Shown here piece after piece: positions 14,899 to 57,740 of a stretch of DNA of 64,000 nucleotides (position 1 is its first letter; every line of letters begins with the position of its first letter). This DNA comes from an uncultured Chloroflexia bacterium (GTDB taxonomy: Bacteria; Chloroflexota; Limnocylindria; Limnocylindrales; CSP1-4). The position numbers and the translations under genes were made by a program. The notes below the pieces were generated by a model. That model saw only the letters and a list, made by a program, of their open reading frames with translations. It had not been told where the DNA came from and searched no databases. The DNA lies in the NCBI GenBank assembly GCA_963748625.1, contig CAVVJT010000007.1, forward strand, positions 1,271,170 through 1,335,169, given 5' to 3'.

Positions 14899-14973
14899 CC
14901 AGCGGACGCCCCCGAAGGGTCGCTCGGTGTCTATCTTTGCCGCAATGCCACCTGCGTCATAGACTGAAGATAG

Positions 14974-17084: not shown

Positions 17085-18269
17085 CTAGATTCCGGACCAG
17101 CCCTCGACGGCAGACCAGCCCTGACTATTGACGCGCCCCACGATGCCGCTCGTTGGCGCTTGTTTTCGGATCTCCTCGTTCACGAGACCCGGGATTGCCT
17201 GCTGAGCCTGGCCTAGTAGCGCCTGAAGAATCTCGCCAGTCTGAGCCGGGATCGACGCTGGGTCCAGTCCGGGCGGGAGGTTCAAGCTCAGCTGCAGATT
17301 GAGATTCAGCGACGGCATGGACCGGGTTCGCGAGACAGTCATCTGCCCACCGATCCTGTGTGCCATGTTGACGGACTCGATTGCCCCAAGGATCACGTCG
17401 GCCCTCGCCTCATCGCCGTCCCCGAGAAGGGCCAGAGGGTCGAGCGGCTCGCGAGTAGAACACAGCTCCTCGTAAGCCTCCAGCAGCGACCAGACAATTG
17501 TCTCGGTCTCGTCGTCGGGCCGAACGATCTTCAGGCCGATCGCCTCGGCCTCACGGCGGCCGATTGCGTGCCCGTGCTGATAGGTCTTCTCCGCAAGCAT
17601 CTCGATCACGGATGCAATCGTCTGCTCTTCAAGCCGCTCGCCCTCGGCGCGCGACGTGAGGAGTTTCCTGGCGACATCTCGGATATGCGAGTGCGCGCGA
17701 TTGATCTGACCGAGGATCACCGGGTCGACGCGCTGGGCAAGGGCTGCGAATGGAGCGGCGAGGGCCGCCTGGTCCGAGAGGCCGACACGCTCCCGGATCA
17801 ATCGGAGGTAGGACATGATGTCCTCTACCGCGACCTGATCCTGGACTGGCGTCTCGCCTTCCCGGCCACGTTGAATGCCGAGTTGCGGATCGATTGGGCC
17901 AAGTTCGCCCTTCGGCCCCATGACTATCTCGTCAGCCCCGATAGCGATCATGGTCGCTGCGCTCATCGCTTTGTACGGCACGATCACCGAGAACCTCTTC
18001 GCGTACTCTCGGATCATGGTGACCATCCGCCACGGGACGTCCGTGAGTCCGCCGGTGGAGTACAGGAAGAGGTCAACCGCCTCGCACTGGCCCACGGTGC
18101 GCAGGTGGTCGTACAGCGGACGGACGGCGTCCTCGGCGACCTGCGCCTGCGCGCCCTGCCGGTCACTGAGCACGTAGGTGACGACGTGACTGCCCCGACG
18201 CGCCCCAAGTTCCCGCAGCAGACGGCGACGATTCGCGGCCCCTGCATCGACCGGTACCAAAGCCCGCAT
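17085..18269 (-). CDS. ClpP-class (SDH/SppA-like) serine protease
   Basis: DLFLYSTGG, AMSAATMIAIGADEIVMG, LGPIDPQ, HGHAIGRREA. Confidence 0.85.
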   Translation of the reverse strand: MRALVPVDAGAANRRRLLRELGARRGSHVVTYVLSDRQGAQAQVAEDAVRPLYDHLRTVGQCEAVDLFLYSTGGLTDVPWRMVTMIREYAKRFSVIVPYKAMSAATMIAIGADEIVMGPKGELGPIDPQLGIQRGREGETPVQDQVAVEDIMSYLRLIRERVGLSDQAALAAPFAALAQRVDPVILGQINRAHSHIRDVARKLLTSRAEGERLEEQTIASVIEMLAEKTYQHGHAIGRREAEAIGLKIVRPDDETETIVWSLLEAYEELCSTREPLDPLALLGDGDEARADVILGAIESVNMAHRIGGQMTVSRTRSMPSLNLNLQLSLNLPPGLDPASIPAQTGEILQALLGQAQQAIPGLVNEEIRKQAPTSGIVGRVNSQGWSAVEGWSGI

Positions 18270-18398
18270 ATCCCCACCTACTAACACTGAGTGACCGTCA
18301 GGTCGCGGATCACCACGACCCGCAGCTCGCTCAGTCTCACCCACGATGATGGCATACGTAGGCGAGCCTTATCCGCAAGGAAACGTACACAATTCATC

Positions 18399-18427
18399 TT
18401 GACGGACGTCCACAGTCGGCGCAGATT
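18399..18427 (+). promoter_or_regulatory. putative sigma70 promoter for a leaderless transcript, palindrome GGACGTCC at 18404-18411
   Basis: TTGACG-N17-CAGATT, 6 nt before ATG 18434, no RBS. Confidence 0.45.
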
Positions 18428-18433
18428 CCCGGC

Positions 18434-18739
18434 ATGCAGAACGTGATTGGCATCCGGACTCTTCGGCGGGGCGTCAACGAGGCGCTCCTGCGCGTGGTGC
18501 GTGGCGAGACGATCGTCCTCGTGCGGCACGGGCGCCCGGTCGCCATCCTCCGGCCGCTCGCCGAGGGTGAGACCCACCGGCGCATCTCCGTGACCACCTT
18601 CCGCCGCAACCTGCGCCGCGCGGTCATCGTGTCCCACCGCCGACCCCTCATGCTCACCTGGTACGGCGACGGGGCCGCGGTGCTCGCACCGGTCCCGCGC
18701 GACCTTGAACTCGAGTACGAAGAGGACGACCTCCTGTGA
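18434..18739 (+). CDS. tandem Phd/YefM-domain protein
   Basis: IGIRTLR...GETIVLVRHGRPVAILRP and ISVTTFRRNL...PLMLTWYGDGAAVLAP. Confidence 0.75.
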   Translation: MQNVIGIRTLRRGVNEALLRVVRGETIVLVRHGRPVAILRPLAEGETHRRISVTTFRRNLRRAVIVSHRRPLMLTWYGDGAAVLAPVPRDLELEYEEDDLL

Positions 18740-19335
18740 CAGCCGGCGGAATGATCCAGGCGCTGGGGATGCGCGAGGTCCGCGCGAACATCCGCGCGGT
18801 GGTGGCACGCGTGGAGGCGGGCGAGGCGCTCGTCGTCCTGCGCGACGGCCAGCCGACCGCGGTGATGCTCGCGTTCGACGAGGCGCAGCGCTGGCAGCAG
18901 ATCGAGCGCGGCCTCGCCGCCCTCCACGGCCTGGAGCTGTACCCGGAGCTCGCGCGGGACACCGCAGAGCTCGCCCGCCTGGTGCGCCGCGAGGTGCGGC
19001 CGAAGGCAGCCGACGTGCGCCGCCTGGCCGAGCTGCCGCGGGACATCCTGGCGCCGCTGCGGACGATGGGCGTCACGGATGCGCGGACGGGCTTCGCCGG
19101 GATGCTCGACGAGATCACGGCCGGGCGGACCATGACGATCGTCTCGGGCGGCCGCTTTGCGGTGACCCTCGTGGCGCCGCGCGAGTTTGACCGCCTGCGC
19201 GCGCTCGACCGCACGGTCGGCTGGTTCCGCTCCGCCGGCCTGGACCTCGCCACTGCCGACGACCAGGCTGTGAGCGCGTTCGTACACGACTTCGCCGCGC
19301 GACCCGCGGCATCCGACATCGCGGCCGCCGGGTAG
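18736..19335 (+). CDS. tandem Phd/YefM-domain protein
   Basis: LGMREVRANI...GEALVVLRDGQPTAVM and MGVTDARTGF...GRTMTIVSGGRFAVTLV. Confidence 0.75.
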   Translation: MTAGGMIQALGMREVRANIRAVVARVEAGEALVVLRDGQPTAVMLAFDEAQRWQQIERGLAALHGLELYPELARDTAELARLVRREVRPKAADVRRLAELPRDILAPLRTMGVTDARTGFAGMLDEITAGRTMTIVSGGRFAVTLVAPREFDRLRALDRTVGWFRSAGLDLATADDQAVSAFVHDFAARPAASDIAAAG

Positions 19336-19343
19336 GGCTGGCC

Positions 19344-19742
19344 ATGCAACGGGGGACCCGCACCATGCCGCATCTGCCGCGCATTCCACGGACACTCGCG
19401 ATCCTCGGCGCCGTGGGACTGCTCTGGCTCGTCGGGGCCTCGCCGAGCCTCGCCGCCTCGGTGCCGGCCGGCGCCCGGGAGGCGCTCGCGCCGGTGACCA
19501 AGATGATCGCGACGCTGGTGGCGATCGCCATCGGCCTCGGGATCGCGGTCTGCGGGGCGGTGATCGTGTGGGGCGGGATCGAGAAGACGCTCGCAGGCGC
19601 GAACCAGGACGCGGAGCACCGCGCGGCGAGACGGATCCAGAACGGAATCCACGGCCTCGTCTGGATGATCCTGGCGTCCGTGATCGTGACGACGATCACC
19701 GCGATCGCCGTCGCCTACGGGCTCATCGACAAGCCCTTCTGA
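19344..19742 (+). CDS. TrbC/VirB2-like conjugative pilin
   Basis: Signal-like N-terminus, two TM helices separated by a charged AARRIQNGIHGL loop. Confidence 0.65.
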   Translation: MQRGTRTMPHLPRIPRTLAILGAVGLLWLVGASPSLAASVPAGAREALAPVTKMIATLVAIAIGLGIAVCGAVIVWGGIEKTLAGANQDAEHRAARRIQNGIHGLVWMILASVIVTTITAIAVAYGLIDKPF

Positions 19743-19754
19743 CCCACCAGACCC

Positions 19755-20888
19755 ATGCTGACGACCGGGGGCCTGGTTCCCCCTACCCTCCGAACTCCCG
19801 AATCGGGCGCGCGCACCCCCTGGCGTCTCCCGCGTGCGGGCCTCGCGCTCGTCCTGCTGACGCTCCTGGGCCTCGGGCTCGCCCTCGTGGCCGAGGCGAC
19901 CCCGGCGCACCCCGACACCTCGCCATCGCCAGCCGCGCCGTCGATCTCGGGGCCGCCGGTCGGGGACATCCCGATCCTGGGCGACCCGATCCGCGACCTC
20001 ACGGTCTGGTACTCGGACCGGGTGCGGGACGCGAACCGCGCCGCGCTCGACAACCTTCGAGGCCAGCTGCTCACGCCGGTCGACCCCCTCACCGACAGCG
20101 TCACGCGCGCCCTGTACGGGCCGATGGTGCTGATCACGATCCCGATCCTCACCTTCGGCGGCCTGATCCTCGGCTACCTGATCATGGTCAGCAGCACCTC
20201 GGGCGCCACCGCCTACGAGGCCCGCTCGGTCGCGCCGCGCTTCGTCGTCGGGGCGGCGCTCGCGATCCTGGGCATCTTCCTTGTCTCGGTGATCACGGCG
20301 TTCGTTGCGGCCCTGGATGAAGCGATGGTGCGCGTGGCGCTGCCGGCCTCGGCGGTCGGCGGGCCCGCGGGCTGGCCGTCCACTGGCGGCGTGTTCGCCG
20401 TGCTCCAGCAGGGCGGCTTCGACCCCCGCGTGCCCCAGGGCCCTGACAACTGGAACAGCGGGGCGTGGATCTCTGCGGGCCTGCTCGCGGGCGTCCTGAC
20501 CACCTGCCTCGCGATGCTCAACTGGTTCCTGACGGGCCTCGAGAAGCTCCTCGTGATCGTGGGGCCGCTGTGCCTCGCGGCGTACGCGATCCCGGCGACC
20601 GAGCGCGTGACCAGGCTCTGGTTCAAGGTCCTGCTCGTCGTGCTTGCCATGCGCTTCGCCTGGGCGATCACGTTCGTCGTGTTCAGCCTGACGGCAGCGC
20701 CGTACGTCGGCCCGTCGGGGGCGCCCGCGACGGTGCAGGACATGAACATCCTGCTCGGCCTGGCTGCGGGAGCCGCCGCGATGATGCTCGGCCTCCCGCT
20801 GGTCCTGATCCCGCTCGCGCTCGCTGGCCCCCAGATCCTGGACAAGGAGAACGTGGTGCGCCTCGTCCGCGTGCTGCCGTACATCTGA
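19755..20888 (+). CDS. TrbL/VirB6-like polytopic membrane protein
   Basis: 6-7 TM segments; LLVIVGPLCLAAYAIPATERVTRLW is typical of monoderm VirB6-like proteins; position between pilin and PrgI. Confidence 0.65.
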   Translation: MLTTGGLVPPTLRTPESGARTPWRLPRAGLALVLLTLLGLGLALVAEATPAHPDTSPSPAAPSISGPPVGDIPILGDPIRDLTVWYSDRVRDANRAALDNLRGQLLTPVDPLTDSVTRALYGPMVLITIPILTFGGLILGYLIMVSSTSGATAYEARSVAPRFVVGAALAILGIFLVSVITAFVAALDEAMVRVALPASAVGGPAGWPSTGGVFAVLQQGGFDPRVPQGPDNWNSGAWISAGLLAGVLTTCLAMLNWFLTGLEKLLVIVGPLCLAAYAIPATERVTRLWFKVLLVVLAMRFAWAITFVVFSLTAAPYVGPSGAPATVQDMNILLGLAAGAAAMMLGLPLVLIPLALAGPQILDKENVVRLVRVLPYI

Positions 20889-22321
20889 TGGGCAAGCTCG
20901 TCGACGTGCCCGAGAACGCGGTCCGCGAGGAGCCGCTCGCATTCGGCCTGACGGCACCGCAGCTGCTGGTGTGCGGGATCGCCGTGGGGATCGGCGCCGT
21001 CATCCAGCTGATCCCTGTCTGGGTCGCGCTCCAGGTCGTGCTCACGGTGCTGCTCGCGGGCCCGGTCCTGCTGTCGGCCATCCTCCCGGTCCGGGGCGAG
21101 CCCGCCTACCGCTGGCTCATCCGCTGGATCCGGTACCTGAGGGGTCCACGGACCCTCGAGATGAGCGCCAGCAACGTCCCATATAAGCCGGAGATAAGTG
21201 GCGAGGTCCAGGATCGGACTGTCGCGGTCGATGCCGCGGTGGACGGGGATCGGGCGATCGACCCGATTGCCGCCCTGGAGGGCCGGGGGGACCCTCCCGC
21301 CATCGTCACGGATCTGCCGGGGGAGGCGCAGACGCCGATGGGGGAGCGTGCCGTGCGGCTCAAGGTCGTCGAGGCCGACGACCGGGAGCCCGAGGTGGAG
21401 GAACGGGAGGTCGCGGGGGACCCGCTCGACCGCCCGTGGGTCGTGCCGCATGCCCTGCCGACCATGCGCGTGGTCGCGGTCGCGGGGTTCGCGGGTGGCA
21501 CCGGCCGGACGACGCTCGCGGCCGAGATCGCGACGCTCGTCGCCTCGGGCGCCCGCATCCGCGGGCTCGATGGCGTGGACATGGCCGTGCGCGTCCTCGT
21601 ACTCGATGCGGCGCGGCTCGCGGGTGCTGTCGGCCTCCGCCTGGGACTCGCGCCTGCCGCGCTCGCGCGCGCCCGCGGCCACCGCCTGTGGCGCGATCCG
21701 GGTGCCATCGCCGACCTCGCGGTGGCGACGCGCTGGGGTGCCGACGTCCTGACCCTGCCGCCGCACCCGGAGTTGGGCGAGCACGACGGCGCGGGCGGCG
21801 ACGCGGCTCTCGGGCTGTTCGGCGCGGCCGAGGCGGGCGAGCTCGTCGAGGGGGCGCAGCGCGCGGGGTACCACCTGCTCGTCGTCGACCTCGGGAGTCT
21901 CCTCGAGGAGGGGCACCGCGAGTTCATCGACCAGGCGGACCTGGTCCTGGGCGTCGTGCGCCCGACGCTCGAATCCCTGCCGGACGTCTTCCGTCTGGCC
22001 ACGGTCACGCGCGCCCAGGGCATGGGCCGCAAGCTCACGCTCGTCGCGAGCGGCGCCGACGACGACACCGAGATCCGCAGGCTCGCGCGCGAGGCAGACG
22101 TCCCGGTCACGGGCTGCATCCGGCCCGATCCCCTGTTCACGACGGCCGCGGACCGGGGTGAGCCCGCGTGGGTGACCGCCCCGCACCTGCGGGCCGACCT
22201 CGTGCGGGTGGCGCGCGCCGCCTGGCCGCTCCTCGCGGATACGGAGCCGCAGTCCTCCCGCCGGCGCTCCGTGCTCGGCGTCGTCCGCGCCACGATCCCC
22301 ACCCCTGGAGGCACCCGATGA
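20888..22321 (+). CDS. PrgI/VirB3-like domain fused to CpaE/TadZ (MinD-like) ATPase
   Basis: N-terminal VPENAVREEPLAFGLTAPQL, two TMs, GEPAYRWLIRWIRYLRGPR; C-terminal VVAVAGFAGGTGRTT, LLVVDLG, ADLVLGVVRP. Confidence 0.75.
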   Translation: MGKLVDVPENAVREEPLAFGLTAPQLLVCGIAVGIGAVIQLIPVWVALQVVLTVLLAGPVLLSAILPVRGEPAYRWLIRWIRYLRGPRTLEMSASNVPYKPEISGEVQDRTVAVDAAVDGDRAIDPIAALEGRGDPPAIVTDLPGEAQTPMGERAVRLKVVEADDREPEVEEREVAGDPLDRPWVVPHALPTMRVVAVAGFAGGTGRTTLAAEIATLVASGARIRGLDGVDMAVRVLVLDAARLAGAVGLRLGLAPAALARARGHRLWRDPGAIADLAVATRWGADVLTLPPHPELGEHDGAGGDAALGLFGAAEAGELVEGAQRAGYHLLVVDLGSLLEEGHREFIDQADLVLGVVRPTLESLPDVFRLATVTRAQGMGRKLTLVASGADDDTEIRRLAREADVPVTGCIRPDPLFTTAADRGEPAWVTAPHLRADLVRVARAAWPLLADTEPQSSRRRSVLGVVRATIPTPGGTR

Positions 22322-23622
22322 CGATGGGCGTCCGTACCGGCTTCGATGGCGCGCCGATTCCCGCCGCGACACTCGGGACCGTCCGCCGCCAGCTCGTGGC
22401 GCGCCTGTCGCCCGAGGACCTCAACCCGTTCGGGCGCACGCCGGAGCAGGAGTCGAGGCTCCGTCGCACGATCGGCGACATCCTCGCCGAACCCGAGCTC
22501 GAACTTGCGCCGACCCCCGCACTCGTCGCCGCGGTCGAGGCAGCCGTGTGCGGCCTGGGTCCCCTGCAGCCGCTCGTCGACGACCCGCTGGTCGGCGACA
22601 TCCTCGTCAACGGGCCGAATGAGATCTTCGTCGAGCGCTCGGGCCGCCTCGAGCAGACGCCGGTGACGCTCGGCTCCGCGCGCGAGGTCGTCGAGATCTC
22701 CGAGCGCATCGCCGCGCTCGCCGGGCGCGAGCTCTCGGTGGCGCACCCGGTCGTGGACGCCCGGATGCCGGACGGGTCACGCGTGAACGCGGTCATCCCG
22801 CCGGTGGGCGGGCCCTACCTCTCGATCCGCAAGTTCAACCGCCTCCGCCTCGACCTGTACCCGGGCGGAAGGCACGGGCGCAGCTGGATCGAGGAGGGCG
22901 GGCTCGACGCCGCGATGGCGGACGTCGTCACCCGCCTCGTGCGTGCGCGCGCGAACATCCTTGTCGCAGGCGAGACGGGCGCCGGCAAGACGACCTTCCT
23001 GCGCACGGTCACGGACCTGTTCGACCAGACGGAGCGGATCGGCGTCGTCGAGGACACAGCCGAGCTCGCGCTCGAGAACCCCGACCGGTTCTGCCTCGAG
23101 ACGCTGCATCCGCACGACCTCGCGGTCGGCGAGGCGGACACCCGGCTGCTCGACGTCGGCGACCTCGTGGCGAACGCCCTCCGGATGCGCCCGGACCGCC
23201 TGATCGTGGGCGAGATCCGGCTGCCGAAGGAGGCGTTCTACACGCTCCAGGCGCTCCACACGGGGCACGACGGATCGGCCACGACCATCCACGCGAGCAG
23301 CGCCGAGGACGCGCTCTTCCGCCTCGAGCTGCTCGCCCGCCAGACCATGCGGGACCTCACGGTGACCGACCTGCGCGGCTACATCGCGCGCGTGTTCGAC
23401 CTGGTCGTCGTGCTGCGCCGTCTCCGCTCGGGGCGCCGCATCGTCCGCCAGCTCACCGCGGTGGACGGCCTGACCGAGGCCGGCGGGTACCGGATGACCG
23501 ACGTGTTCCGGGCTGAGGCGGTCCCAGGCTCGGACGAGATCCGGTTCACCGCCGCAGCTGCGTGGACGCCGTCGCCGCGCCTCCTCGCGCGCCTCGAGCT
23601 GGAGGGCGACCAGTGGAGCTGA
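22318..23622 (+). CDS. cpaF: Tad pilus ATPase CpaF/TadA
   Basis: DILVNGP, DARMPDGSRVNA, GETGAGKTT, LRMRPDRLIVGEIR, TGHDGSATTIHA. Confidence 0.92.
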   Translation: MTMGVRTGFDGAPIPAATLGTVRRQLVARLSPEDLNPFGRTPEQESRLRRTIGDILAEPELELAPTPALVAAVEAAVCGLGPLQPLVDDPLVGDILVNGPNEIFVERSGRLEQTPVTLGSAREVVEISERIAALAGRELSVAHPVVDARMPDGSRVNAVIPPVGGPYLSIRKFNRLRLDLYPGGRHGRSWIEEGGLDAAMADVVTRLVRARANILVAGETGAGKTTFLRTVTDLFDQTERIGVVEDTAELALENPDRFCLETLHPHDLAVGEADTRLLDVGDLVANALRMRPDRLIVGEIRLPKEAFYTLQALHTGHDGSATTIHASSAEDALFRLELLARQTMRDLTVTDLRGYIARVFDLVVVLRRLRSGRRIVRQLTAVDGLTEAGGYRMTDVFRAEAVPGSDEIRFTAAAAWTPSPRLLARLELEGDQWS

Positions 23623-24488
23623 TCGGCGCGCTCGCCGCCGGAGTCGCCGTCATGGCGCTGATCCTCGCGCTCGCGCCCGCCCGGGTGCAGCCGGCGTCGT
23701 CGCTGCGGACCAGAGTCCGGGTCCTCCAGGCGGAGCGGGTGGGCAAGGCGCGTTCGCTCCTCGAGCAGGCACGCCTCGACGTGGCTCCGCGCACGTACCT
23801 CGCGCTCGAGATCGCCTCGCCGCTGGTGCTCGCGTGGCTCGGGCTGCTCATGTCCGTGCCGATGGCGGTCCTCGGGCTCATCGTGGGCGCCCTCGTGCCG
23901 CGCTGGTACGTGCGGTACCTCGTGTCATCGGAGGCGCGGGCGGCGGCCGACGACGCTCCCCGGGTGCTGCGTGCCATGGTCAACCGCGCGGCCTCGGGCG
24001 GCACCTACCCGGACCTCTACGCCGCGGCTGCCGAGGCGGCGCGCCACCGCTGGGTGAAGGCCGACTTCGAGGAGATCCTCTCGCGCTACTACGCCGCCGA
24101 GGCCCCGGCGGACGCGCTCGTCGAGGTTCGCCGCCGGCAGGCGGGCCGGAACCTCGCGCTCGTGTACGACGCGCTCATCACGCTCGCGCGCACGCACCAG
24201 CCCGTGTCGGCCGCCGCGCAGGTGCTGGGCTCGCTGGGCGACGCGGCGCGGGCCAACGCCTCGATCGCGAAGGCGGCGGTCGCCGAGAGCAAGGGCCTCC
24301 GGCTCCAGGCGACGATCCTCGCGATCGTCATCCCGGGCATGTTCCTGTACCTGCTCCTCGCGAACGGCGAGCTCATCGCCCCGGTCCTCGGCACGCCGCT
24401 CGGGCGGTACGTGCTGCTGCCCGCCGCCGCACTTCTCGAGGTCACCGGCATCGCGCTCTCGTGGCGCATCACGCGGCTGGAGGCCTAG
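23613..24488 (+). CDS. tadB: TadB-like platform protein
   Basis: T2SSF-like topology, follows cpaF, GGAGGG RBS. Confidence 0.75.
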   Translation: MELIGALAAGVAVMALILALAPARVQPASSLRTRVRVLQAERVGKARSLLEQARLDVAPRTYLALEIASPLVLAWLGLLMSVPMAVLGLIVGALVPRWYVRYLVSSEARAAADDAPRVLRAMVNRAASGGTYPDLYAAAAEAARHRWVKADFEEILSRYYAAEAPADALVEVRRRQAGRNLALVYDALITLARTHQPVSAAAQVLGSLGDAARANASIAKAAVAESKGLRLQATILAIVIPGMFLYLLLANGELIAPVLGTPLGRYVLLPAAALLEVTGIALSWRITRLEA

Positions 24489-24490
24489 GG

Positions 24491-25396
24491 ATGGAGCTGG
24501 TCGGCACGATCGCGGTCGCGATCGCCGTGTTCTCGCTATGCGTGGCAGTGCTGGGCTCGTCCCTGCTCGTCCCGCGCCGGCTCGACGCGATCCGCGCGGT
24601 CGCGATCCCCCGCCACCAGTACGAGCGCCTGGTCAGCGCGGAGGTGCCGCTCTGGGAGCGCATCGTCGCGCCGGTCGCGGTCCGCCTCGCCGCCCGGGCC
24701 CCGGCCTTCGCCTCGCAGGTGAGCGAGCGCGACCTCATCCGCGCGGGCTTCGACCCCGCGGTCATCACGCCGGCCGAGGTGTACGCGGCCAAGCTCGTGC
24801 TCGCCGCAGGGATCCTTGCCGTGGGTGCCGCGCTGAGCCCGCTGGTGCCCGTCGCCCTGCTGGTCGCGCTGCCGGTCGCCTTCGTCGGGTACCTGTTCCC
24901 GACCGAGTACCTCGCGTCGCGCGGCAAGGCGCGCACGGCCCAGCTCGCGCGGGAGCTGCCCGACTTCCTCGCCCTCGTGCGACCACTCGCGGCGAAGCAC
25001 GGCCTCGAGCACGCCGTCGCCGATGTGGCGGACGCGCTGCACGACGCGTCGGGCGGGCAGAACCTGCTTGCGCGCCAGATCCGGAGTGCCGTCGCCGCCT
25101 ATGGCACGGGCACCGACCTCTTCGGGGCGCTCCGCGACATCGCGATGGCGGCAGAGCTCGAGGAGCTCGACGAGCTCGCGGCAGCCCTGTCCCAGTCCCG
25201 CCGCCTCGGCAAGGGCATCAACGAGACCCTCGCCGAGCACGAGCGATCCCTCCGCGATACCGAGCGCAACCGGCTTGCCGGTGCCGCCTCGTCGGTTCAG
25301 CCGAAGCTCGCGGCGATCCTCGCCGGGATCTACCTGCCCGAGTTCGTGCTGCTTGTCGTCGCTCCCCTGTTCATCTCGACCCTGGGTCGAATCTAG
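24491..25396 (+). CDS. tadC: TadC-like platform protein
   Basis: LARELPDFL, ALSQSRRLGKGINETL, terminal YLPEFVLLVVAP. Confidence 0.8.
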   Translation: MELVGTIAVAIAVFSLCVAVLGSSLLVPRRLDAIRAVAIPRHQYERLVSAEVPLWERIVAPVAVRLAARAPAFASQVSERDLIRAGFDPAVITPAEVYAAKLVLAAGILAVGAALSPLVPVALLVALPVAFVGYLFPTEYLASRGKARTAQLARELPDFLALVRPLAAKHGLEHAVADVADALHDASGGQNLLARQIRSAVAAYGTGTDLFGALRDIAMAAELEELDELAAALSQSRRLGKGINETLAEHERSLRDTERNRLAGAASSVQPKLAAILAGIYLPEFVLLVVAPLFISTLGRI

Positions 25397-25413
25397 CCAC
25401 GAGGAGGTGGACC

Positions 25414-25614
25414 ATGACCATCAAGCACCCCCGAGCCCGGAGGGCCTCGCGAACGTTGGCGGCCGTGCTGCGCGACGAGCGCGGCGTGACGACCCTCGAG
25501 TACATCATCGCCGCGGCGATCGTCCTCGTCGTGCTCAGTGCCGCGATCCTCGCCTGGAACAACGGGCTCGCCGACAAGATCGGCGATCTCATCCGCCTGC
25601 TGGCCGGCACGTGA
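25414..25614 (+). CDS. flp: Flp (type IVb) prepilin
   Basis: RDERG|VTTLEY motif plus hydrophobic helix; GAGGAGG RBS. Confidence 0.88.
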   Translation: MTIKHPRARRASRTLAAVLRDERGVTTLEYIIAAAIVLVVLSAAILAWNNGLADKIGDLIRLLAGT

Positions 25615-26033
25615 GCGGGCCACTGGCGGCCGCTGCCCGGCGGCGGCGGCGCGGTGAGGCCGGGTCGACCGTCGTGGAGGCGGTGCTCGTCGTGCCGCTC
25701 GTCCTTGTCCCGGTGCTCGCGGCGACCGTGATCCTCGGGCATCTCGCCCACACCCGGATCGTGCTCGACGCGGCCGCTGCCGCCGGTGCCCGCCAGGCCG
25801 CGGTCATCGGCGCCGATGGGCCGTCGGTCCGGAGCCGCATCCGGGCCGAGCTTGCGGACGGCGGGCTCGACCCGGGCACGGTCGGGGTCTCGGTGACGCC
25901 GGCCTCGGCGGGCTGGGGACAGCCGATCCGGGTGCGGCTGACGGCCACGAGCAGGGCAGCCGTCCCGTTCCTGGGCACCTGGACGCTGCCGCTCGCGGCG
26001 GAGTTCGTGACCCGCAGCGAGGTGACCCACTGA
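25611..26033 (+). CDS. tadE: TadE-like minor pilin
   Basis: GEAG|STVVEAVLVVP, AAAAGARQAA. Confidence 0.8.
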   Translation: MSGPLAAAARRRRRGEAGSTVVEAVLVVPLVLVPVLAATVILGHLAHTRIVLDAAAAAGARQAAVIGADGPSVRSRIRAELADGGLDPGTVGVSVTPASAGWGQPIRVRLTATSRAAVPFLGTWTLPLAAEFVTRSEVTH

Positions 26034-26528
26034 TGGCCTGGTCACGGGACGGGGAGCGCGGGCAGGTCGCGGTGTACGCCGTGCTGCTGTTCCCCACGCT
26101 GATGCTCGTCGTCGCATTCGTGCTCGCGATCGGCAGCGTCGAGATGCTGCGCTCGCGCCTGCGTGCGCAGCTGGACATGGCGGCGCTCACGGCCACCCAG
26201 GCGATCGATCTCGGCGCACTCGCGAGCGGCGGACGCCCCGTCCTCGTCCGCGACAAGGCCGACGGGCTCGCCCGCCAGTACCTCGCGGTCAACGTGGCGG
26301 TGCTCGGCGACCAGCTGCTCGTCACGCCGGAGGCCGTCGCCGGTGCCGCGCAGGTCGCGGTGACGAACCGGGTGGGCACCGTCGACCCGATCACGGGGCT
26401 GCCGGTGACCGCCCCGACCGTGAGCATCCGCGTGGTCGTCCCGGTCGACCGTGCCGGTGCTGGCCGTCGCGGGCCTCCGGACCAGGGTGGACCTCGAGCT
26501 CACGGGCTCGGCCGCCGCGAGGAGCTGA
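26033..26528 (+). CDS. TadG-like minor pilin (frameshift near 3' end)
   Basis: GERG|QVAVYAVLLFP, LRAQLDMAALTATQ. Confidence 0.7.
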
Positions 26529-26532
26529 CGCC

Positions 26533-27096
26533 ATGCCGACCCAGCCACGCCTGTCCCTCCCGGTCCTCGCCGGCGCCGCCATCGCCATCGGCCTGCTCGT
26601 CGTCGGCGGGATCCTGCTCCTCGGCCAGCTCGGCACCCCGGGTGCCAAACCCACCCCGTCGTCTCCGGTCGCGTTGACGGCCTCGCCCGCGGCCACCCCG
26701 TCCGACCCTGGATCGACACCCGAAGCCGCGGTCGGCGCGTTCTTCACCAGGCCTTCGCCGACGCCCGCCGCACCGGGGATCCGGCGCCGATCGAGGCCCT
26801 CACCACGGGGCCCGAAGTCGTCGGCCTACCTCACCGTCGCGGGCTTCCTCGAGGGCCAGACGGCCGCAGAGAAGGCGTCGATCGTGACCGTCCAGGAGTT
26901 CGGGGACCTCACGACTACGATCGAGGGCAGCACCGCGATCGTCGTCTTCGACCTCACCGAGGGCGGCTACGACATCAGGCTCGCGGACGCCTCGCCGCTC
27001 GAGTCGCCGCAGGTCCTGCCCCCGAGCAGGGTCACCGTGCAGCTCGTCCAGGCCGATGGCCGATGGCTGGTCGACGCGTTCGAGGCGGCGCGGTGA
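26533..27096 (+). CDS. membrane-anchored hypothetical protein, NTF2-like C-terminus
   Basis: N-terminal TM, Pro/Ser/Thr linker, TPEAAVGAFF...VQLVQADGRWLVD; probable compensating indels. Confidence 0.55.
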   Translation: MPTQPRLSLPVLAGAAIAIGLLVVGGILLLGQLGTPGAKPTPSSPVALTASPAATPSDPGSTPEAAVGAFFTRPSPTPAAPGIRRRSRPSPRGPKSSAYLTVAGFLEGQTAAEKASIVTVQEFGDLTTTIEGSTAIVVFDLTEGGYDIRLADASPLESPQVLPPSRVTVQLVQADGRWLVDAFEAAR

Positions 27097-28303
27097 AGCG
27101 CCTCGGGGATCGCTGTCGTCCTGGGCGCGGTCCTCGCGATCGCGCTCGCCGGAAACGCGTCAGCCTTCGACTCCGGTGTTGCGCGTCACCGTCGACACGT
27201 GGGAGGCGGGTGGCGGCCGGGCCTACGTGGGCGTCCAGGCGCAGGGCCGCTGGGCACGCCCGGGCACGCGGTCGTGCATCGCGCTACTACTCGGTCTGGG
27301 ACCATCGGGCGACGATCCTCACGGATCCCGTGCGAGACCAGTGGTCGGTCAAGGTCCATCACGTGCACGGGCAGCACCGTCAATCCACTGAGCCCGACGA
27401 TGGTGCTCACGAGCCGGACCACGCCCGGGATCGGCGTCCGCCCGTCAACGTCGGGCGTGCTGAGCCTCGACCTCGGCGTCGCGGTCGATCCCGGAGACCG
27501 CGCCCGCCGGCAGGACCCGCACGATCACGGCCGCGCTCACCAGCGGCTGGCTCGGCGCCGTCGGGAACCACATCCGCGCGTCCGATCGTGCCCGGGTCGG
27601 TGCGGATCCGGCGCTGGACCGTGGACTTCGGCGACGGCACGACCAGCACGATCGCCCCGTCATCGACGAGCCCGCAACCACCTCTCGACCACGCACGCGT
27701 ACGGCGCGGGCACGTTCACGGTCACGGTCACCGCGCGGGTCACCGGGTCGCGCCTACGCCGCGTTCTTCGCCCCCAATGGCACGCCGTACGAGTCCACCG
27801 TCGGGATGGAGCCTCGACATCACCAACGCGGCCTCGGGTGTGTCGGGCCTGCCGGTCGAGTACGTCACCCCGGTCGCGACGGCGGCGGCGAGCCCGTCAG
27901 GGACCCTGCCCGACGGCACCACCGCCGCGGCCGACCCCGACGGACTCACCGAGATCTGGTGGCCGCGCGGGCTGCCGTGCGACCTGTTCGTGCGCGCGGT
28001 CATCGAGCGCGAGGGGTTCATGCGCTCGGGCGGCGTGGTCATCGGCGCAGGGCCGGACGCGCCTCGTCCGGTACCGCTACATCCGGGGCACCAACGACGC
28101 CCCGGACGCGACGCGCACCGGGCACGTACCGGGCCGCCGCGCCGATCCGGATCCAGTGGAACACGCCGCTGCCCGGGACCAGGTCCTACCCGGTCCGCCT
28201 CGAGCTCATCCTCGAGACCACCTACGACGACGGCACCGTCCGGACCACCCGCGTGGCGGGCGAGGTCTCGGTGACCGTCGTCTACTCCGCGGCTGCCCAG
28301 TAA
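27093..28303 (+). CDS. secreted PKD/Ig-like domain protein (multiple frameshifts)
   Basis: WTVDFGDGTT and HAYGAGTFTVTVTA PKD motifs in different frames. Confidence 0.6.
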
Positions 28304-28310
28304 GGAGGGG

Positions 28311-29014
28311 ATGCCCATGCGTGTCCGCCGGACCGTCTACCTCGCCATCTTCGTCATCGCGAGCCTCGTCGCCGCCGGGCGCCTACTGGCTCGCCCAGCC
28401 CCGGACCGAGGTCGTCCGCGCCACCGTCGACATCCCCGTGCTCGACCCAGGTCACGGCCGACATGGTCGAGCTCGTGCGGGTCAGCCCGCTCGGGGTGCC
28501 GCCGAACGCCGCTCGGTCGCTCGATGCCGTCGTCGGGCAGCACGCCTCGCTGCCGATCCTCGCGGGGCAGGATGTCGACACCCGGGCGCTCGAGGCCATC
28601 CCGGGCTCGCAGGCGTTCGGGTTCGGGGCGCCGCTGGCACCGGGCGAGGTGGCATTCGCGCTCCCGGTGACCGCCGAGCAGGCGGTCGGCGGTGCGCTGA
28701 CGGCCGGCTCCCACGTGGACGTGATCGCGGTGCCGAACGACGTCAGGCAGGCGGGCGTGACATCAACGGGGGATGCCCCGTCCACCGTCGCCCTCGGCCA
28801 GGGCCTGACGATCCTCGCCCTGCGGACGGACGACGGCCGGGACCTCGCCGCGGGCGACCCGGAGGACACGACGAGCACGATCCCGCCGAAGCTCGCCTCC
28901 GTGGTCGTCGCGATCCCGGCGGCACGCCTGACGGAGTTCGCGACCGCCGCGATGACCTCGACGTTCTACTTGGGACTGGAGACGGTGCCGCCACCGGTGG
29001 CGACGGTGCCCTGA
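28311..29014 (+). CDS. cpaB: CpaB/RcpC (SAF-domain) pilus assembly protein (frameshifted)
   Basis: N-terminal TM, VVRATVDIP, AFALPVTAEQAVGGALTAGSHVDVIA; TAAGGAGG RBS. Confidence 0.8.
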
Positions 29015-29056: not shown

Positions 29057-30073
29057 TCAGGGTCGATCCGGAACGCCGACCGCCGATAAGCGGAAGTCGA
29101 GTTCGTCAAGGTCGCGAACAGCGCGAGCGAGCGACGCCCGGGCGAAGAACGGAATGTCGTGCGGCACGCGCCCGTGTGCGGCATCCACGATGACGTAGAC
29201 AACCTCGAGGGCCCCGGGAGCGGGCTTCGCACTGGCATCGATCACCGCCCCGAGATACGGAGCGTCCGCCTGGACCAGGTCCCGGAACCGCTCGCGGACC
29301 TTCACCTCGTGGCGCAAGCCCTCAGCCGAGGTCACACCCTGCGTGAACAGGTACGAGAGCTCCTGGGAGCCGATGCCCCGCTTGACATGGATCAGCTTGT
29401 CCGGCGCCACGAAGACATCACAGAGCTCGAAGCGGCCGCGCTCTGTCCCCACCTGGGCCAGCTTCTTGTCGAGCAGCACACCGCCGAGCGCCGCGGCAAG
29501 GTCCGCGTTGTAGAGGTCCTCGGGCATCGCGACCCGTGCGGGCGTGGGAATGGCCAGCGTCGGCGGCCGTACTCGCCGCGCCGCGGAGTCGACGCTTGCC
29601 AGGTACTCGCCGCTGACCTTGAACCAACGGCCCTCGGAGAGCACGTACGCGTCGTCGCCGTCCTGCAACTCCCAGACCAGCCAGCGGTAGATCGGCCAGC
29701 GGTCGAGCGCACGCATGGAGTTGCGGTCGACCACACGCAGGTCGTCGGCCATGAGGTCGTCGAGAGTGGGGTCCGGACGGAGCAGCCGGTAGTCGTCGAG
29801 GCTCGCCTCCTCGCGCCGGATGGTGCTCGCCTCGCCGCCAAAGCGGAACGCGGCCACCGTCTCCCAGTCGAGGATCCCCGGCGGCGCGAAGTAGGCTCCG
29901 CCAGCATCGGGGTCCTGCAGCACCCGGACCAGCTGCGCGTCGAGCCGCCGCGCCAGCGGCGAGCCCTTGGGCTCGGCCTGGAGGCGCTCCAGCGTCGGGA
30001 ACCCGTCGAGGAAGTCACGCCCGGCGTAGTCGGCCAGGAGCTGCCTTCCCAGGCGGTCAAGGTCACGCAGGTC
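29057..30073 (-). pseudogene. C-terminal part of a TIGR04141/DUF6119-like protein, N-terminus missing
   Basis: YVLSEGRWF, EDLYNADL, LLDKK, FELCDVF, LIHVKR, LSYLFTQGVTSA. Confidence 0.7.
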
Positions 30074-31056
30074 ATTGAACTTGATGGCGGTGCGCGGGTG
30101 CTGGTTGAGCAGGCCGGTGATCAGGTAGGGCAGGTCGAAGCCCCAGCCGAGTTTGGCGCGCATCGGCTCGATGTGGTTCTGGACGCAGCGCAGCACCGGG
30201 CGCAGCTGGTACTTCGGGTTGTGCAGAAAGCCGATGAGCAGTTCCATGGGGCAGTTGCCCGCGCCGCGGCCGAGGCCGGCCATGGTGGCGTCGACCATGT
30301 TCGCGCCCAGCACGATGGCCTCGATGGTGTTGGCGAAGGCGAGCTGCAGGTTGTTGTGCGCGTGGATGCCGACCTCCTTGCCGGCGGGCTTGCAGTAGCT
30401 GCAGGTATTTCTTGACCGAGGTAGCGGATCTGCTCGCTGTAGAAGCGCGCCGAAGCTGTCCACCAGGTAGATGGCCTTGGTCTCCGACTTCGCGAGCAGG
30501 GCCAGGGCCTCGTCCAGTTCGCGCTCTGGCACCGTCGAGACGGCCATCAGGTTGACGGTGGTCTCGTAGCCCTTGTCGTGGGCGTCCTTGACCATGTCCA
30601 GCGCGATGCGGGATCTGGTGGATGTAGCAGGCCACGCGGATCAGGTCGACGACGCTCTCCTTCTTGGGCAGGATGTCCTCGCGGTAATCGCATCGTCTCG
30701 GCGTCGGCCATGACCGCCAGTCTTCAGGTCCGGTCGGGTTGTCGCCCACGATGCGGCGGATGTCGTCCTCGTGCGCAGTATTTCCAGGCGCCGTACTCGC
30801 CCGGCCGATGATGTCTCTTGCGGGAGGCCTTGTAGCCGATCTCCATGTAGTCGATGCCGGCGGCCACGCAGGCGTCGTAGACGGCCCTGACGATGCCGTC
30901 GTCGAACTGGTGGTTGTTCATCAGGCCGCCGTCGCGGATGGTGCAGTCCAGGACCTTGATTTCCGGCCGATACGAAATCCACCGGCTGGTGGCGGATTCC
31001 TTTTCCGGTGTCGCTTTCTTCGCCTTGGCGGCGGACTCGGGCTGGCGGTTGGGCAT
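30074..31056 (-). CDS. DRE-TIM/HMGL-like aldolase-family protein, frameshifted and cut just before its C-terminus
   Basis: VLDCTIRDGG, YLVDSFG, GIHAHNNLQLAFANT, GLGRGAGNCPME, NQHPR. Confidence 0.85.
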
Positions 31057-31231: not shown

Positions 31232-33025
31232 ATGCCGAACCTGCCACGACTGATGATGCCTGCAATGCTGATGATCTCCATGGTGGAGCTGACCCACGGC
31301 GCCGACGCGGTCGACGTGGCGCAGGCACAAGCCGACGCCTGGCGCGCGGGTCATCGATTGATCGATCTGCACCAACACGTCAACCTTTCGCCCGAGCACG
31401 TGGAACGCGCGGTCAGGATCATGGACCGCGCCGGCATCGGCCTGGCCGTCAACCTCGGCAGCGGCACGGTCACTCGCGCGAGCGACGGCGCCCCTTCCGA
31501 GTTCGAACGCGGCAAAGCCCTGACGGATCGCCTGCACCCCGGGCGCTTTCTCCATTACCTGACGCTGGATTATGAAGGCTGGGACACGCCGGATTGGTCG
31601 CAACGCGCAGTGCGACAGATCGAGGAGGGACATCGCCTCGGGGCGGCGGGCCTGAAGGAATTCAAGCGACTCGGCTTATCATTGCGCGACGGGGCCGGTC
31701 AGTTGATCCGGGTGGACGATCCGAAGCTTGATCCCGTGTGGGCGCGCTGCGGCGAACTGAATCTGCCGGTTTCCATTCATGTGGCGGATCCGAAGGCGTT
31801 CTGGGAACCCTACGACGAATCCAATGAACGCTGGAACGAGCTCCGGGATCATAAGAACTGGTGGTTTGGCGATCCCGCGGTTCATCCGGCGCGGCTGGAT
31901 CTACTGCAGGCCTTGAACCGGGTCATCGAGCGCCATCCGAAGACCACCTTCGTCTCTGTCCATTTCGCGAATAACGCGGAGGACCTCGAGTGGGTGGAAG
32001 CGTCGCTCGACCGTTATCCCAACCTGATGGCCGATCTTGCCGCCCGGATCCCCGAGATCGGCCGGCACGATCCCGCGGCGGTGCGCCGCCTGTTCATGAA
32101 GCATCAGGACCGGATCCTGTTCGGCACCGATTTCATGGTCTACGACCGCCTGATCCTGGGTTCGAGCGGCAATGAACCGCCGCCCACGGACGACGATGCC
32201 CAAGTGTTCTTTGATAAACACTGGCGCTGGCTCGAAACCAACGACCGCGACTGGCCCCATATGACCCCCATCCAGGGCGACTGGACCATCAGCGGCATCG
32301 GCCTCCCCGCCACTGTTCTGCGCAAGATCTATTTCGATAACGCGCGACAGTTGCTCGCCCGGTCCCTGCCCTTGCCGACGTTCCGCGCAGCCCGGATCGA
32401 GCGGGATTTCGCGCCTGCCGGCGCCATGACCGAACCCGAATGGCAATCCGCCGAGCCGGTTTGGATCGAATGCGCCACGCAGGACGGAAGGGCGCGACCC
32501 GCGTTGTCGACGAGCGTCCGCGCCCTATGGTCGGAGCGTTACCTCTACCTGGGGTTCATCGCGCCATACACCACGTTGACCGTGTTCGAACCGCCGCTGA
32601 CGGCAGGGAAACGTTTCGGCGACAAACCGGGAGAGAGCCTGTGGGATCGTGATGTGGTCGAAGCCTTCATTAACGCCGACCCGTCAGACCTCCGCCATTA
32701 CACGGAATACCAGGTGGCCCCCACCAACGAACGGCTCGACCTGCGGTTGCGCCTGCCCGACCGGGATTTCGAATGGCAAAGCGGCTTCGAGTCCGCCGTC
32801 GACCTCGACGAGCCGGCCAAGGTCTGGCGCTGCGTCATGCGCATTCCCATGTCCGCCCTCAGCCTCACCGGTCCGCAAGCGGGAACGCGTTGGCGACTGA
32901 ACCTCTTCCGGTGTGACCGCGCCCATAACGCGTTTCTCACCTGGAACCCGACCCTGAGCGCGACCTTTCACACGCCGGAGAAATTCGGCGTGCTCGAGTT
33001 TGTGGCGGCGGTGCCGCGCCGTTGA
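31232..33025 (+). CDS. amidohydrolase_2 fused to CBM9-like domain
   Basis: IDLHQH, GLKEFK, IHVAD, VHF, LFGTD; C-terminal LWDRDVVEAFI, WRLNLFR, FHTPEKFG. Confidence 0.82.
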   Translation: MPNLPRLMMPAMLMISMVELTHGADAVDVAQAQADAWRAGHRLIDLHQHVNLSPEHVERAVRIMDRAGIGLAVNLGSGTVTRASDGAPSEFERGKALTDRLHPGRFLHYLTLDYEGWDTPDWSQRAVRQIEEGHRLGAAGLKEFKRLGLSLRDGAGQLIRVDDPKLDPVWARCGELNLPVSIHVADPKAFWEPYDESNERWNELRDHKNWWFGDPAVHPARLDLLQALNRVIERHPKTTFVSVHFANNAEDLEWVEASLDRYPNLMADLAARIPEIGRHDPAAVRRLFMKHQDRILFGTDFMVYDRLILGSSGNEPPPTDDDAQVFFDKHWRWLETNDRDWPHMTPIQGDWTISGIGLPATVLRKIYFDNARQLLARSLPLPTFRAARIERDFAPAGAMTEPEWQSAEPVWIECATQDGRARPALSTSVRALWSERYLYLGFIAPYTTLTVFEPPLTAGKRFGDKPGESLWDRDVVEAFINADPSDLRHYTEYQVAPTNERLDLRLRLPDRDFEWQSGFESAVDLDEPAKVWRCVMRIPMSALSLTGPQAGTRWRLNLFRCDRAHNAFLTWNPTLSATFHTPEKFGVLEFVAAVPRR

Positions 33026-33128
33026 TTACGCCGCTTTTCGTTCGGTCCACGTCATCGTGCACGGAATTCGACACGGAAGTTACAAAGCGGTAACAACTCG
33101 TGCGGAGCGTTTTGGGATTCTGCCACCC

Positions 33129-57708: not shown

Positions 57709-57740
57709 AGGACCTAGTGCGGCAGGGCCTCGGACCAAAT

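Follow-up and report, generated by a model that had tools for sequence, protein, structure and literature searches.

A conserved Chloroflexota cassette that probably interleaves a Tad/Flp pilus machine with parts of a type IV secretion system

The subject of this study is a gene cassette in a stretch of 64,000 nucleotides, hereafter the window, from an uncultured Chloroflexia bacterium (assembly GCA_963748625.1, contig CAVVJT010000007.1, positions 1,271,170 to 1,335,169 of the forward strand). The cassette occupies positions 18,380-29,014 of the window (10.6 kb, 14 genes, + strand) and is probably a conserved operon of Chloroflexota in which a secretin-less, monoderm-type Tad/Flp machine is interleaved with inner-membrane parts of a type IV secretion system (T4SS), the copy in the window having lost VirB4 and a wall hydrolase. 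The Tad set of the operon would comprise a CpaE-like protein, CpaF, TadB, TadC, Flp, TadE, a TadG-like protein, and CpaB, and the T4SS set a VirB2-like pilin, a VirB6-like protein, and, in one polypeptide with the CpaE-like ATPase, a VirB3/PrgI domain. The Chloroflexota that carry it are from soil and water, and those labeled below the phylum are assigned to Limnocylindria or Limnocylindrales. No description of a Tad-T4SS operon was found in the full-text literature searched, including that on pili in Limnocylindria.

A scan of public metagenome-assembled genomes (MAGs), with one genome per species, yielded 46 cassette loci, 45 of them in Chloroflexota/Chloroflexi MAGs and one in an Acidimicrobiia MAG. 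The gene order is kept in 46 of 46 loci as far as each reaches (tblastn), and six MAGs contain two to four copies each. A VirB4 protein of 735 residues is encoded directly after CpaB in 15 of the 24 loci with sequence at this position, as judged by clustering of the flanking open reading frames (ORFs), and a wall hydrolase with SLT and Peptidase_M23 domains (approximately 310 residues) comes next in 13 of these 15. These relatives establish the T4SS-Tad hybrid as real, and the form complete with VirB4 and the hydrolase is probably the ancestral one; this full form encodes VirB1-, VirB2-, VirB3-, VirB4-, and VirB6-like proteins around a complete, secretin-less Tad set. An earlier, sequence-only reading of the window had proposed a hybrid T4SS-Tad operon at 19344-29014 and had noted that a one-off deletion product would speak against it; the same order in 46 loci and the position of VirB4 speak for the hybrid.

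Boundaries and gene content of the cassette

The window is collinear with the related loci L007, L001, L003, and L040 from 18,378-18,385 to 28,942-29,014 (blastn, 74-79% identity). Outside the 10.6-kb block, blastn found no DNA shared between the window and these four loci, so the cassette is sharply bounded. The G+C content is 72-74% in the cassette region and approximately 64-67% on both sides, and the third-position G+C indicates that genes follow one another on the + strand without interruption between 18,434 and 29,014. All the genes named in the sequence-only reading are present on the + strand, and the limits given there, 19344 and 29014, do coincide with gene ends, although the block starts approximately 0.96 kb earlier (~18,380) with two Phd/YefM-like genes that had been missed. 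The gene order is Phd1, Phd2, VirB2-like, VirB6-like, PrgI(VirB3)-CpaE, CpaF, TadB, TadC, Flp, TadE, TadG-like, NTF2-fold, PKD-like, and CpaB; the last 12 are referred to as G1 to G12. Bit scores are given with the family cut-offs of the profile libraries Pfam and NCBIfam.

18380..18433, + strand: left edge of the conserved block and leader before the first gene; blastn homology to L007, L001, L003, and L040 begins at 18378-18385
18434..18739, + strand: Phd1, Phd/YefM-like protein 1, 101 residues; TIGR01552 28.5 bits (cut-off 20.8), PhdYeFM 26.9 (cut-off 29.8); syntenic in relatives
18736..19335, + strand: Phd2, Phd/YefM-like protein 2, 199 residues with two Phd-like stretches; PF02604 56.2 bits; syntenic
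19344..19742, + strand: G1, VirB2-like T4SS pilin, 132 residues; T4SS_pilin PF18895 27.4 bits (cut-off 26.6)
19755..20888, + strand: G2, polytopic membrane protein, likely VirB6/TrbL-like, 377 residues; fold search and language-model neighbors
20888..22321, + strand: G3, fusion of PrgI/VirB3-like and CpaE/TadZ-like domains; PrgI 27.7 bits (cut-off 27.0), CbiA 23.2 (cut-off 25.4), TIGR03815 26.8 (cut-off 154)
22318..23622, + strand: G4, CpaF/TadA-type secretion ATPase, 434 residues; T2SSE 142.1 bits (cut-off 24.9)
23613..24488, + strand (start uncertain, 23562 or 23613): G5, TadB-like platform protein; T2SSF 19.4 bits, below the cut-off of 25.2; position and synteny
24491..25396, + strand: G6, TadC-like platform protein; T2SSF 26.6 bits (cut-off 25.2)
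25414..25614, + strand: G7, Flp prepilin, 66 residues, site G/VTTLEY; Flp_Fap 21.5 bits, below the cut-off of 32.2
25611..26033, + strand: G8, TadE-like pseudopilin; PF07811 35.9 bits (cut-off 22.9)
26033..26528, + strand: G9, TadG/TadF-like pseudopilin; PF13400 (Tad) 19.5 bits (cut-off 22.3); one frame break at ~26450
26533..27096, + strand: G10, bitopic membrane protein with an outward NTF2-like domain; AlphaFold2 (AF2) model with a predicted local distance difference test (pLDDT) score of 80.1; two compensating frame breaks at ~26749 and ~26817
27063..28303, + strand: G11, membrane-anchored protein of ~410 residues with a PKD/Ig-like domain; weak PKD signal; 11 frame breaks
28311..29014, + strand: G12, CpaB/RcpC, last gene of the conserved block; RcpC 44.2 bits (cut-off 28.8) and TIGR03177 43.1 bits for 28463-29014; breaks at ~28377 and ~28444

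Most gene junctions of the cassette have overlapping stop and start codons (TGATG at G2/G3 and G8/G9, ATGA at G3/G4, and GTGA at G7/G8 and G10/G11), as befits the tightly coupled operon proposed before. G9-G12 are not open frames as written (16 breaks). Scanning 18.0-30.5 kb for promoters and terminators gave 0 promoters and two terminator-like sites against 1.4 expected from shuffles, no excess in either case, and the leader of the cassette showed no consensus promoter. Phd/YefM-like protein 1 may serve as a regulator of the operon, because no toxin partner follows it.

The T4SS homology of the first genes is carried by PF18895 for G1, by PrgI profiles for G3, and by fold and embedding neighbors for G2, which upholds the earlier reading on this point. 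All 13 G1 homologs match PF18895, 9 of the 13 at or above the cut-off, and inspection by eye shows a signal-peptide-like N-terminus followed by two hydrophobic helices. In the G3 protein, a two-helix membrane domain similar to PrgI/VirB3 (residues ~1-90) is connected through a variable linker to a ParA/MinD domain of CpaE/TadZ-like type (residues ~190-440). The Walker A motif in the window is GGTGRTT, in which the lysine is replaced by arginine; the same replacement occurs in 8 further rows of the 19 in alignment A1, and the other rows have lysine. This replacement suggests that the CpaE-like domain is a non-hydrolyzing scaffold form in some lineages. At least 185 homologs have the same length as G3 (43-86% identity), PF12666 is present in 50 of the 120 listed, and the named sources are Limnocylindria/Limnocylindrales or Chloroflexi. 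An exhaustive profile search of 1.84 billion cluster representatives gave 303 matches at E ≤ 0.001, and the PrgI-CpaE fusion family is small, because these include only ~12 close and ~10 distant full-length fusions. A tblastn search with G3 against 72,556 plasmid records gave no match.

The identity of G2 as a VirB6-like protein is likely but not proven. The window protein has no Pfam match, no profile reaches its own cut-off for this protein or its homologs, and weak TrbL/VirB6 matches appear in 3 of 14 homologs (E ~0.01). An AF2 model built from 36 sequences is of moderate confidence (pLDDT 63.8), and the R388 VirB5-VirB6 stalk accounts for all six of its best PDB matches (E = 0.008-0.37, template modeling [TM] score = 0.26-0.45); the chains belonging to VirB6 were told apart by their length only. 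In the language-model atlas, the neighbors are TrbL_3/TrbL_4 clusters at 0.91-0.92, and 10 of the 10 best matches with a family belong to one clan (TrbL). The family profile of G2 compared with PDB sequences gave only a chance-level match (E = 0.15).

The fold of G10, a membrane anchor followed by an NTF2-like domain, has the same architecture as VirB8 proteins. The PDB matches listed are ARC6, Tim44, and generic NTF2-like proteins; no VirB8, PrgL, or TraM structure is among them, and G10 was therefore not accepted as a specific VirB8 homolog.

Among the Tad-type genes, the NCBIfam ranking of G4 places the TadA family (TIGR03819, 230.4 bits, below the cut-off of 373) above VirB11 (174.2) and TrbB (156.7). 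The processing site motif of Flp prepilins is G/xxxxEY, and the form G-[LV]-T-T-[LV]-E-Y is found in 32 of 32 aligned sequences of G7. No profile family was assigned to the window proteins of G10 and G11. Weak PKD matches were obtained for 7 of 12 homologs of G11, for which the language-model atlas gives weak PKD leads only (≤0.80); the gene is intact at ~400-417 residues in most of 28 related loci. The N-terminus of G12 was recovered across two frame breaks, its three frames being continuous with respect to L007. No Peptidase_A24 match that would indicate the prepilin peptidase TadV/CpaA was found among the scanned ORFs of the window or in the flanks of the related loci (covered up to 10 kb on either side of G3), and this enzyme may be encoded elsewhere in the genome. 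A secretin (RcpA/CpaC) is absent from the window and from the loci examined, as expected for a monoderm-type locus.

VirB4 and the wall hydrolase in related loci

The 735-residue protein of the relatives matches P-loop_TraG, AAA_10, DUF87, the VirB4-like protein of PDB entry 4ag5 (E = 1e-27), and TrwK/VirB4 (E = 4e-6). The best NCBIfam model is the VirB4-like CD1110 family, with 176-187 bits (below the cut-off of 325 bits). Neither VirB4 (with the L013 protein as the query) nor the hydrolase gave a tblastn match in the whole 64-kb window. The absence of a secretin, prepilin peptidase, VirB4, VirD4, and relaxase that had been noted from the sequence holds for all scanned ORFs of the window, and for VirB4 also by tblastn. 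The further suggestion that the missing genes lie beyond a break at 30 kb is not supported: nothing T4SS-like occurs at 30-64 kb, homology to the relatives ends at the CpaB stop codon, and the entire four-member clade of the window lacks VirB4 at this position. The proposed search of homologous loci for virB4, virD4, and relaxase genes did recover VirB4 in 15 of 24, but a coupling protein and a relaxase were not seen in the flanks.

A tree of the cassette was built from CpaF, TadB, TadC, G2, and G1 with 38 rows, nine short loci with <50% of the columns being left out. The clade that contains the window, L007, L003, and L001 has a support of 100 in the Shimodaira-Hasegawa-like approximate likelihood ratio test (SH-aLRT), all four of its members are without VirB4 at the post-CpaB position, and L007 is 86% identical to the window. 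Every major clade contains VirB4-positive loci, one of them being L040 in the sister group of the window clade, and VirB4 is always at the same position. On the 38-row tree, presence and absence of VirB4 require five changes, at least four of which are forced by well-supported branches; a smaller tree of 23 rows, without L040 and other loci, requires only two. Repeated loss of VirB4 is the simpler reading, because its position is always the same. The window copy is thus a member of a sub-lineage from which VirB4 and the hydrolase have disappeared, and it cannot be an autonomous T4SS. The Acidimicrobiia locus (L046), which has many frame breaks, is the sister of L022 from Chloroflexi, and could reflect either a binning error or a recent transfer between phyla.

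The pairwise ratios of nonsynonymous to synonymous substitution rates (dN/dS, Nei-Gojobori method) of the T4SS-derived genes and of CpaF are as follows.

G1: 0.15-0.23 in the clade of the window, 0.00-0.13 in VirB4-positive pairs
G2: 0.25-0.45 in the clade of the window, 0.04-0.18 in VirB4-positive pairs
G3: 0.31-0.47 in the clade of the window, 0.16-0.26 in VirB4-positive pairs
G4: 0.12-0.23 in the clade of the window, 0.06-0.09 in VirB4-positive pairs

Purifying selection on the T4SS-derived genes persists where VirB4 has been lost, although in a relaxed form.

The PrgI part of G3 from L013 was modeled with the N-terminal domain of VirB4 from the same locus, and the interaction prediction score from aligned errors (ipSAE) was 0.65, compared with 0.00 for the best of three controls; the mark used for this score is reached by 116 of 157 solved complexes and by 2 of 215 mismatched pairs. 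The runs agree in at least 94% of the contacts, and the pLDDT of the partner is at least 74. A VirB3-VirB4 complex has reportedly been solved already, and the result therefore speaks for a likeness to the docking of VirB3 on VirB4 and is no proof of binding. In the model, residues 1-14 and 71-99 of L013 G3 (with the PENAV and GEPAYRW motifs) touch VirB4, and the same columns of alignment A1 are invariant, including in the VirB4-less window copy. The conservation of these modeled VirB4-facing residues hints that the PrgI domain of this copy may have another partner or that VirB4 may be supplied from elsewhere. VirB4 could act in trans, because the short form L003, adjoined by a serine recombinase, shares a MAG with the VirB4-containing full forms L018 and L038. 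L036 is from this same MAG, and L016, L022, and L025 are together in another.

In the window clade, the position taken by VirB4 in the full form is occupied by different genes: an ECF (extracytoplasmic function) sigma factor and a cation-efflux gene in L001, a large serine recombinase in L003 (likewise in L027, elsewhere in the set), two unknown proteins in L007, and a DUF6119 fragment in the window.

Sequence quality, flanks, and mobility

In a frameshift-aware alignment to the L007 proteins, 16 frame breaks were located between 26,450 and 28,444: one in G9 (26450), two in G10 (26749 and 26817), 11 in G11 (27102 to 28120), and two in G12 (28377 and 28444). One-base insertions account for 15 of the 16; the breaks are spaced by ~60-260 bases, and none occurs in the preceding 8 kb. 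It could be argued that the window copy is a dead and functionless remnant, a truncated element in which deletion has removed the T4SS motor and decay has reached the last four genes. The 16 breaks within 2 kb, the absence of VirB4 and the hydrolase, the truncated chimeric gene next downstream, and the relaxed constraint on G2 and G3 in the window clade would all fit such a remnant, which we nevertheless regard as decidedly improbable. The frames are conserved between the breaks; when these are skipped, 305 of 409 residues of G11 (75%) and 121 of 163 residues of G9 (74%) are identical to L007, within the range of intact genes, and no premature stops are needed. Natural mutation does not produce a spectrum made up almost entirely of one-base insertions. 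The first ten genes, which span 8 kb, are of full length without damage, and the genes are intact in the three sister loci. Furthermore, breaks occur across the window, since the rhamnosidase, URO-D, LytS/LytTR, and CHASE2/cyclase genes are also split. The rhamnosidase gene (47.1-50.5 kb) is divided over three frames at exactly continuous Pfam coordinates, with both shifts in the same direction as those in the cassette. These breaks suggest errors of the consensus sequence that are biased toward insertions and are concentrated where the cassette varies most, real decay being the alternative.

Homopolymer error does not account for the 16 breaks, as the longest adjoining runs are 1-4 bases, similar to the background, and counting non-triplet gaps in blastn alignments was uninformative, as intact control pairs at 75-79% identity gave as many as the window. 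Neither natural decay nor homopolymer error of the typical kind would readily give such an insertion-only pattern. Elsewhere in the window, URO-D is split in at least two places (50935-52111), an HMGL-like gene is also split by a frame change, and pieces of a LytS-type kinase, a receiver, and LytTR (42278-44216), as well as CHASE2/cyclase pieces (55757-57780), are in separate or fused ORFs.

The cassette had been described as ending at a convergent cargo gene, and a convergent ORF is indeed present, although it is a chimera; it corresponds to the 30-kb break of the earlier reading.

29057..30595, - strand: convergent chimeric ORF, outside the cassette; DUF6119/TIGR04141 (profile positions 186-519) joined near 30.1 kb to an HMGL-like aldolase (profile positions 118-241)
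30724..31056, - strand: N-terminal piece of the aldolase, in another frame

The DUF6119/TIGR04141 fragment is without approximately the first 185 profile positions, and the G+C content falls from 0.729 to 0.636 at the junction. The right half of the window contains outer-membrane-type genes for ExbD/TolR-TPR, LptE-like, and ShlB/FhaC (POTRA plus Omp85) proteins (33000-34745, 39848-40357, and 61274-62884). They are unexpected, because PMC10608941 describes Chloroflexota as grouping with monoderms. The named homologs of the ShlB-like protein include one from a Verrucomicrobiota MAG and one from a Limnocylindr* MAG (68% identity). It is conceivable that the 73% G+C block was misjoined to foreign sequence at ~30.1 kb, so that the right neighborhood says nothing about the host or the element; the in-frame fusion of two unrelated gene fragments, the step in G+C, the LptE, ShlB/Omp85-type, and ExbD proteins, and the Verrucomicrobiota homolog point in this direction. 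We consider such an artifact unlikely. The G3 protein is recorded on one single contig of 1,335,169 bases, one named ShlB homolog carries the Limnocylindr* label, the downstream flanks of L032 and L042 also have a G+C content of 0.63-0.64, and, L020 apart, the G+C content of the cassette exceeds that of its upstream flank in all long loci. The join may be a real rearrangement or a chimeric assembly, and in either case it is outside the cassette.

Upstream of Phd1, the loci differ completely, and defense-type families occur within 7.5 kb in ~16-18 of the 24 loci examined: type I and type III restriction-modification (R-M), DUF499, TIR/Thoeris, GmrSD, Druantia DruA, Shedu, Wadjet-like, PglZ, OLD/UvrD, and Cas1. 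In L032, an extra T2SSE-type ATPase gene and a DUF6650 gene are directly upstream of the cassette (5667-6683). The left flank of the window is also a defense island (730-2187 and 7583-18344).

Left flank, listed with 730-2187 and 7583-18344: PDC-S01 candidate ATPase (DUF4143)
7583-9358, left flank: type I R-M HsdM
9088-10593, left flank: type I R-M HsdS
11200-13578, left flank: type I R-M HsdR
14974-16659, left flank: Schlafen/AlbA_2 protein
17085-18344, left flank: SDH-type ClpP-like protease

None of the two Phd-like proteins, the SDH-type protease, and the DUF6119 fragment gave a match in PADLOC. Transposases are found in three loci, and a large serine recombinase adjoins CpaB in L003 and L027 only. 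The variable defense genes, the copy number, and the recombinases of some loci suggest a cassette that serves a mobile element as its backbone. Its location on an integrative element, as claimed at first, is plausible but unproven, because searches of the window turned up no coupling protein, relaxase, or integrase and neither a tRNA nor a boundary repeat; the repeats in 16.5-31.5 kb are short, imperfect, and of a chance type, and no tyrosine integrase was seen in the window or the locus flanks. None of the Pfam scans of the window or the loci gave a match to a relaxase family.

Several observations weigh against the interpretation of the cassette as a mobile hybrid of a Tad machine and a T4SS. 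The VirB6 assignment of G2 draws on a low-confidence model (pLDDT 63.8, TM score ≤0.45) and embedding neighbors, and G10 matches generic NTF2 folds rather than VirB8. As written, G9-G12 are not open. Genes for outer-membrane proteins to the right of the cassette are odd for a monoderm host. No coupling protein (of the VirD4 or TcpA type), relaxase, or integrase was seen among the scanned ORFs of the window or in the flanks of the related loci, so that DNA transfer can only be inferred; the flanks of the full-form loci extend to ~0.1-0.2 kb past the hydrolase and cover the full-form element no further. Finally, L001 is a short form in a record titled chromosome, where no mobility gene is nearby and the neighbors (epimerases, a GNAT, an ECF sigma factor, and a cation-efflux protein) look ordinary; such a setting is as compatible with a resident pilus locus as with a mobile one.

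These observations bear on the possibility that the cassette encodes a specialized Tad-type surface machine for adhesion, protein export, or contact-dependent antagonism, with no DNA transfer, in which the VirB2/3/6-like proteins are structural parts and VirB4 and the hydrolase are optional. In addition to the lack of a relaxase or coupling protein in the window and in any flank examined and to the ordinary chromosomal genes around L001, 9 of the 24 informative loci have no VirB4 and yet retain intact G1-G3 with dN/dS <1. T4SSs without a VirD4 homolog and with non-conjugative roles are known, according to PMC12857230 and, for the Patescibacteria T4SS, to PMC12102498. On the other hand, VirB4 is present in every major clade and always at the same position, the number of copies per genome, the variable upstream defense genes, and the adjoining recombinases and transposases look like a mobile backbone, and the dN/dS of G2 and G3 approximately doubles where VirB4 was lost, as expected if their main partner is gone. 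We therefore hold a machine without DNA transfer to be rather unlikely for the cassette as a whole. Of the two alternatives offered by the sequence-only reading, a T4SS remnant recruited to a new machine suits the copy in the window better than does a mating apparatus in working order.

Proposed apparatus and comparison with known systems

If the full form of the hybrid cassette works as its gene content suggests, CpaF, TadB, and TadC would assemble an Flp pilus that makes or tightens cell contact, the SLT+M23 hydrolase would open the wall, and VirB4, VirB3, VirB6, and VirB2 would form the translocation channel, the PrgI-CpaE fusion linking the pilus and channel halves at the membrane. The copy in the window most likely still builds an Flp pilus with T4SS-derived membrane proteins as parts, or it may rely on VirB4 from elsewhere. 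As a bolder and still tentative proposal, which we hold with less than even confidence, the cassette would represent an undescribed transfer apparatus of Chloroflexota, in which a Tad pilus and a minimal T4SS (VirB2, VirB3, VirB4, VirB6, and the wall hydrolase) form one machine through the docking of PrgI-CpaE on VirB4, carried by mobile elements that shuttle defense genes; lineages that lose VirB4 would keep the T4SS membrane proteins under selection. If this is true, the cassette would be a T4SS core caught in the middle of a takeover by a type IV filament machine.

Conjugation in bacteria without an outer membrane is generally regarded as pilus-free, and gene transfer in Chloroflexota has been little studied. 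The cassette, which recurs in dozens of species, would represent a new design for a mating or translocation apparatus and provide a natural experiment on the exchange of parts between two great families of envelope-spanning ATPase machines. It also marks a hotspot of very diverse defense systems and can therefore be used as an anchor for finding mobile elements and defense islands in uncultured soil and freshwater Chloroflexota. Taken alone, the window contains a motor-less copy in a sequence of uneven quality.

Monoderm Tad/Flp (type IVc) loci, of which actinobacterial tad loci are examples, are similar to the cassette in that they contain the same CpaF/TadA, two T2SSF proteins, Flp with the G/xxxxEY site, TadE/TadG-like proteins, a CpaE/TadZ-like ParA, and CpaB in a single locus without a secretin. 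Unlike these loci, the CpaE-like protein of the cassette carries an N-terminal PrgI/VirB3 domain, the operon opens with VirB2- and VirB6-like genes, the full form ends with VirB4 and a wall hydrolase, and the prepilin peptidase is not in the cassette. Tad loci are the type IV filament systems that have most often been transferred and are most often found on plasmids, as stated in PMC6668835.

The T4SSs of the mating-pair formation (MPF) classes FATA and FA (Prg/Pcf of pCF10 and CTn2) share with the cassette the PrgI/VirB3-like, VirB4, and VirB1-like hydrolase proteins and probably a PrgH/VirB6-like one, as described in PMC4027160. According to the same source, an SLT+M23-type wall hydrolase is the kind carried by monoderm T4SSs, no pilin homologs were found in MPF-FATA, and VirB11 is rare outside MPF-T. 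In contrast, the cassette has a VirB2-like pilin, an Flp pilin, and a CpaF ATPase, and no coupling protein or relaxase was seen in it. In addition, its prgI is fused to cpaE instead of preceding virB4, which is 7 kb away in the relatives and absent from the window.

Pilus-assisted transfer is known from the IncI plasmid R64, with a thin pilus and a Dot/Icm-like T4SS, and from PAPI-1, with a type IV pilus together with VirB4 and VirD4 (described in PMC12857230). Similar to the cassette, whose mobility we infer, both combine a type IV filament machine with ATPase and channel parts of a T4SS on one mobile element, where they act together in mating. However, R64 and PAPI-1 use type IVb pili encoded in separate gene clusters in diderms, whereas the cassette has a Tad (type IVc) system interleaved gene by gene and joined by a gene fusion, in a phylum described as monoderm.

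Archaeal Ced/Ted systems import DNA alongside Ups pili, according to PMC9905601, and Ups and Ced cooperate in Sulfolobales, according to PMC11868833. Patescibacteria, placed as a sister lineage of Chloroflexota, have a minimal T4SS with a VirB2-like pilin, as described in PMC12102498. Ced/Ted and the Patescibacteria T4SS resemble the cassette in having a minimal set of VirB2-, VirB6-, VirB3-, and VirB4-like proteins, with no outer membrane and no obvious relaxase, beside a type IV pilus; unlike in the cassette, the pilus and the T4SS are encoded apart, and Tad genes are not involved. None of the systems compared has a Tad machine whose genes alternate with those of a T4SS or are linked to them through a VirB3-CpaE fusion.

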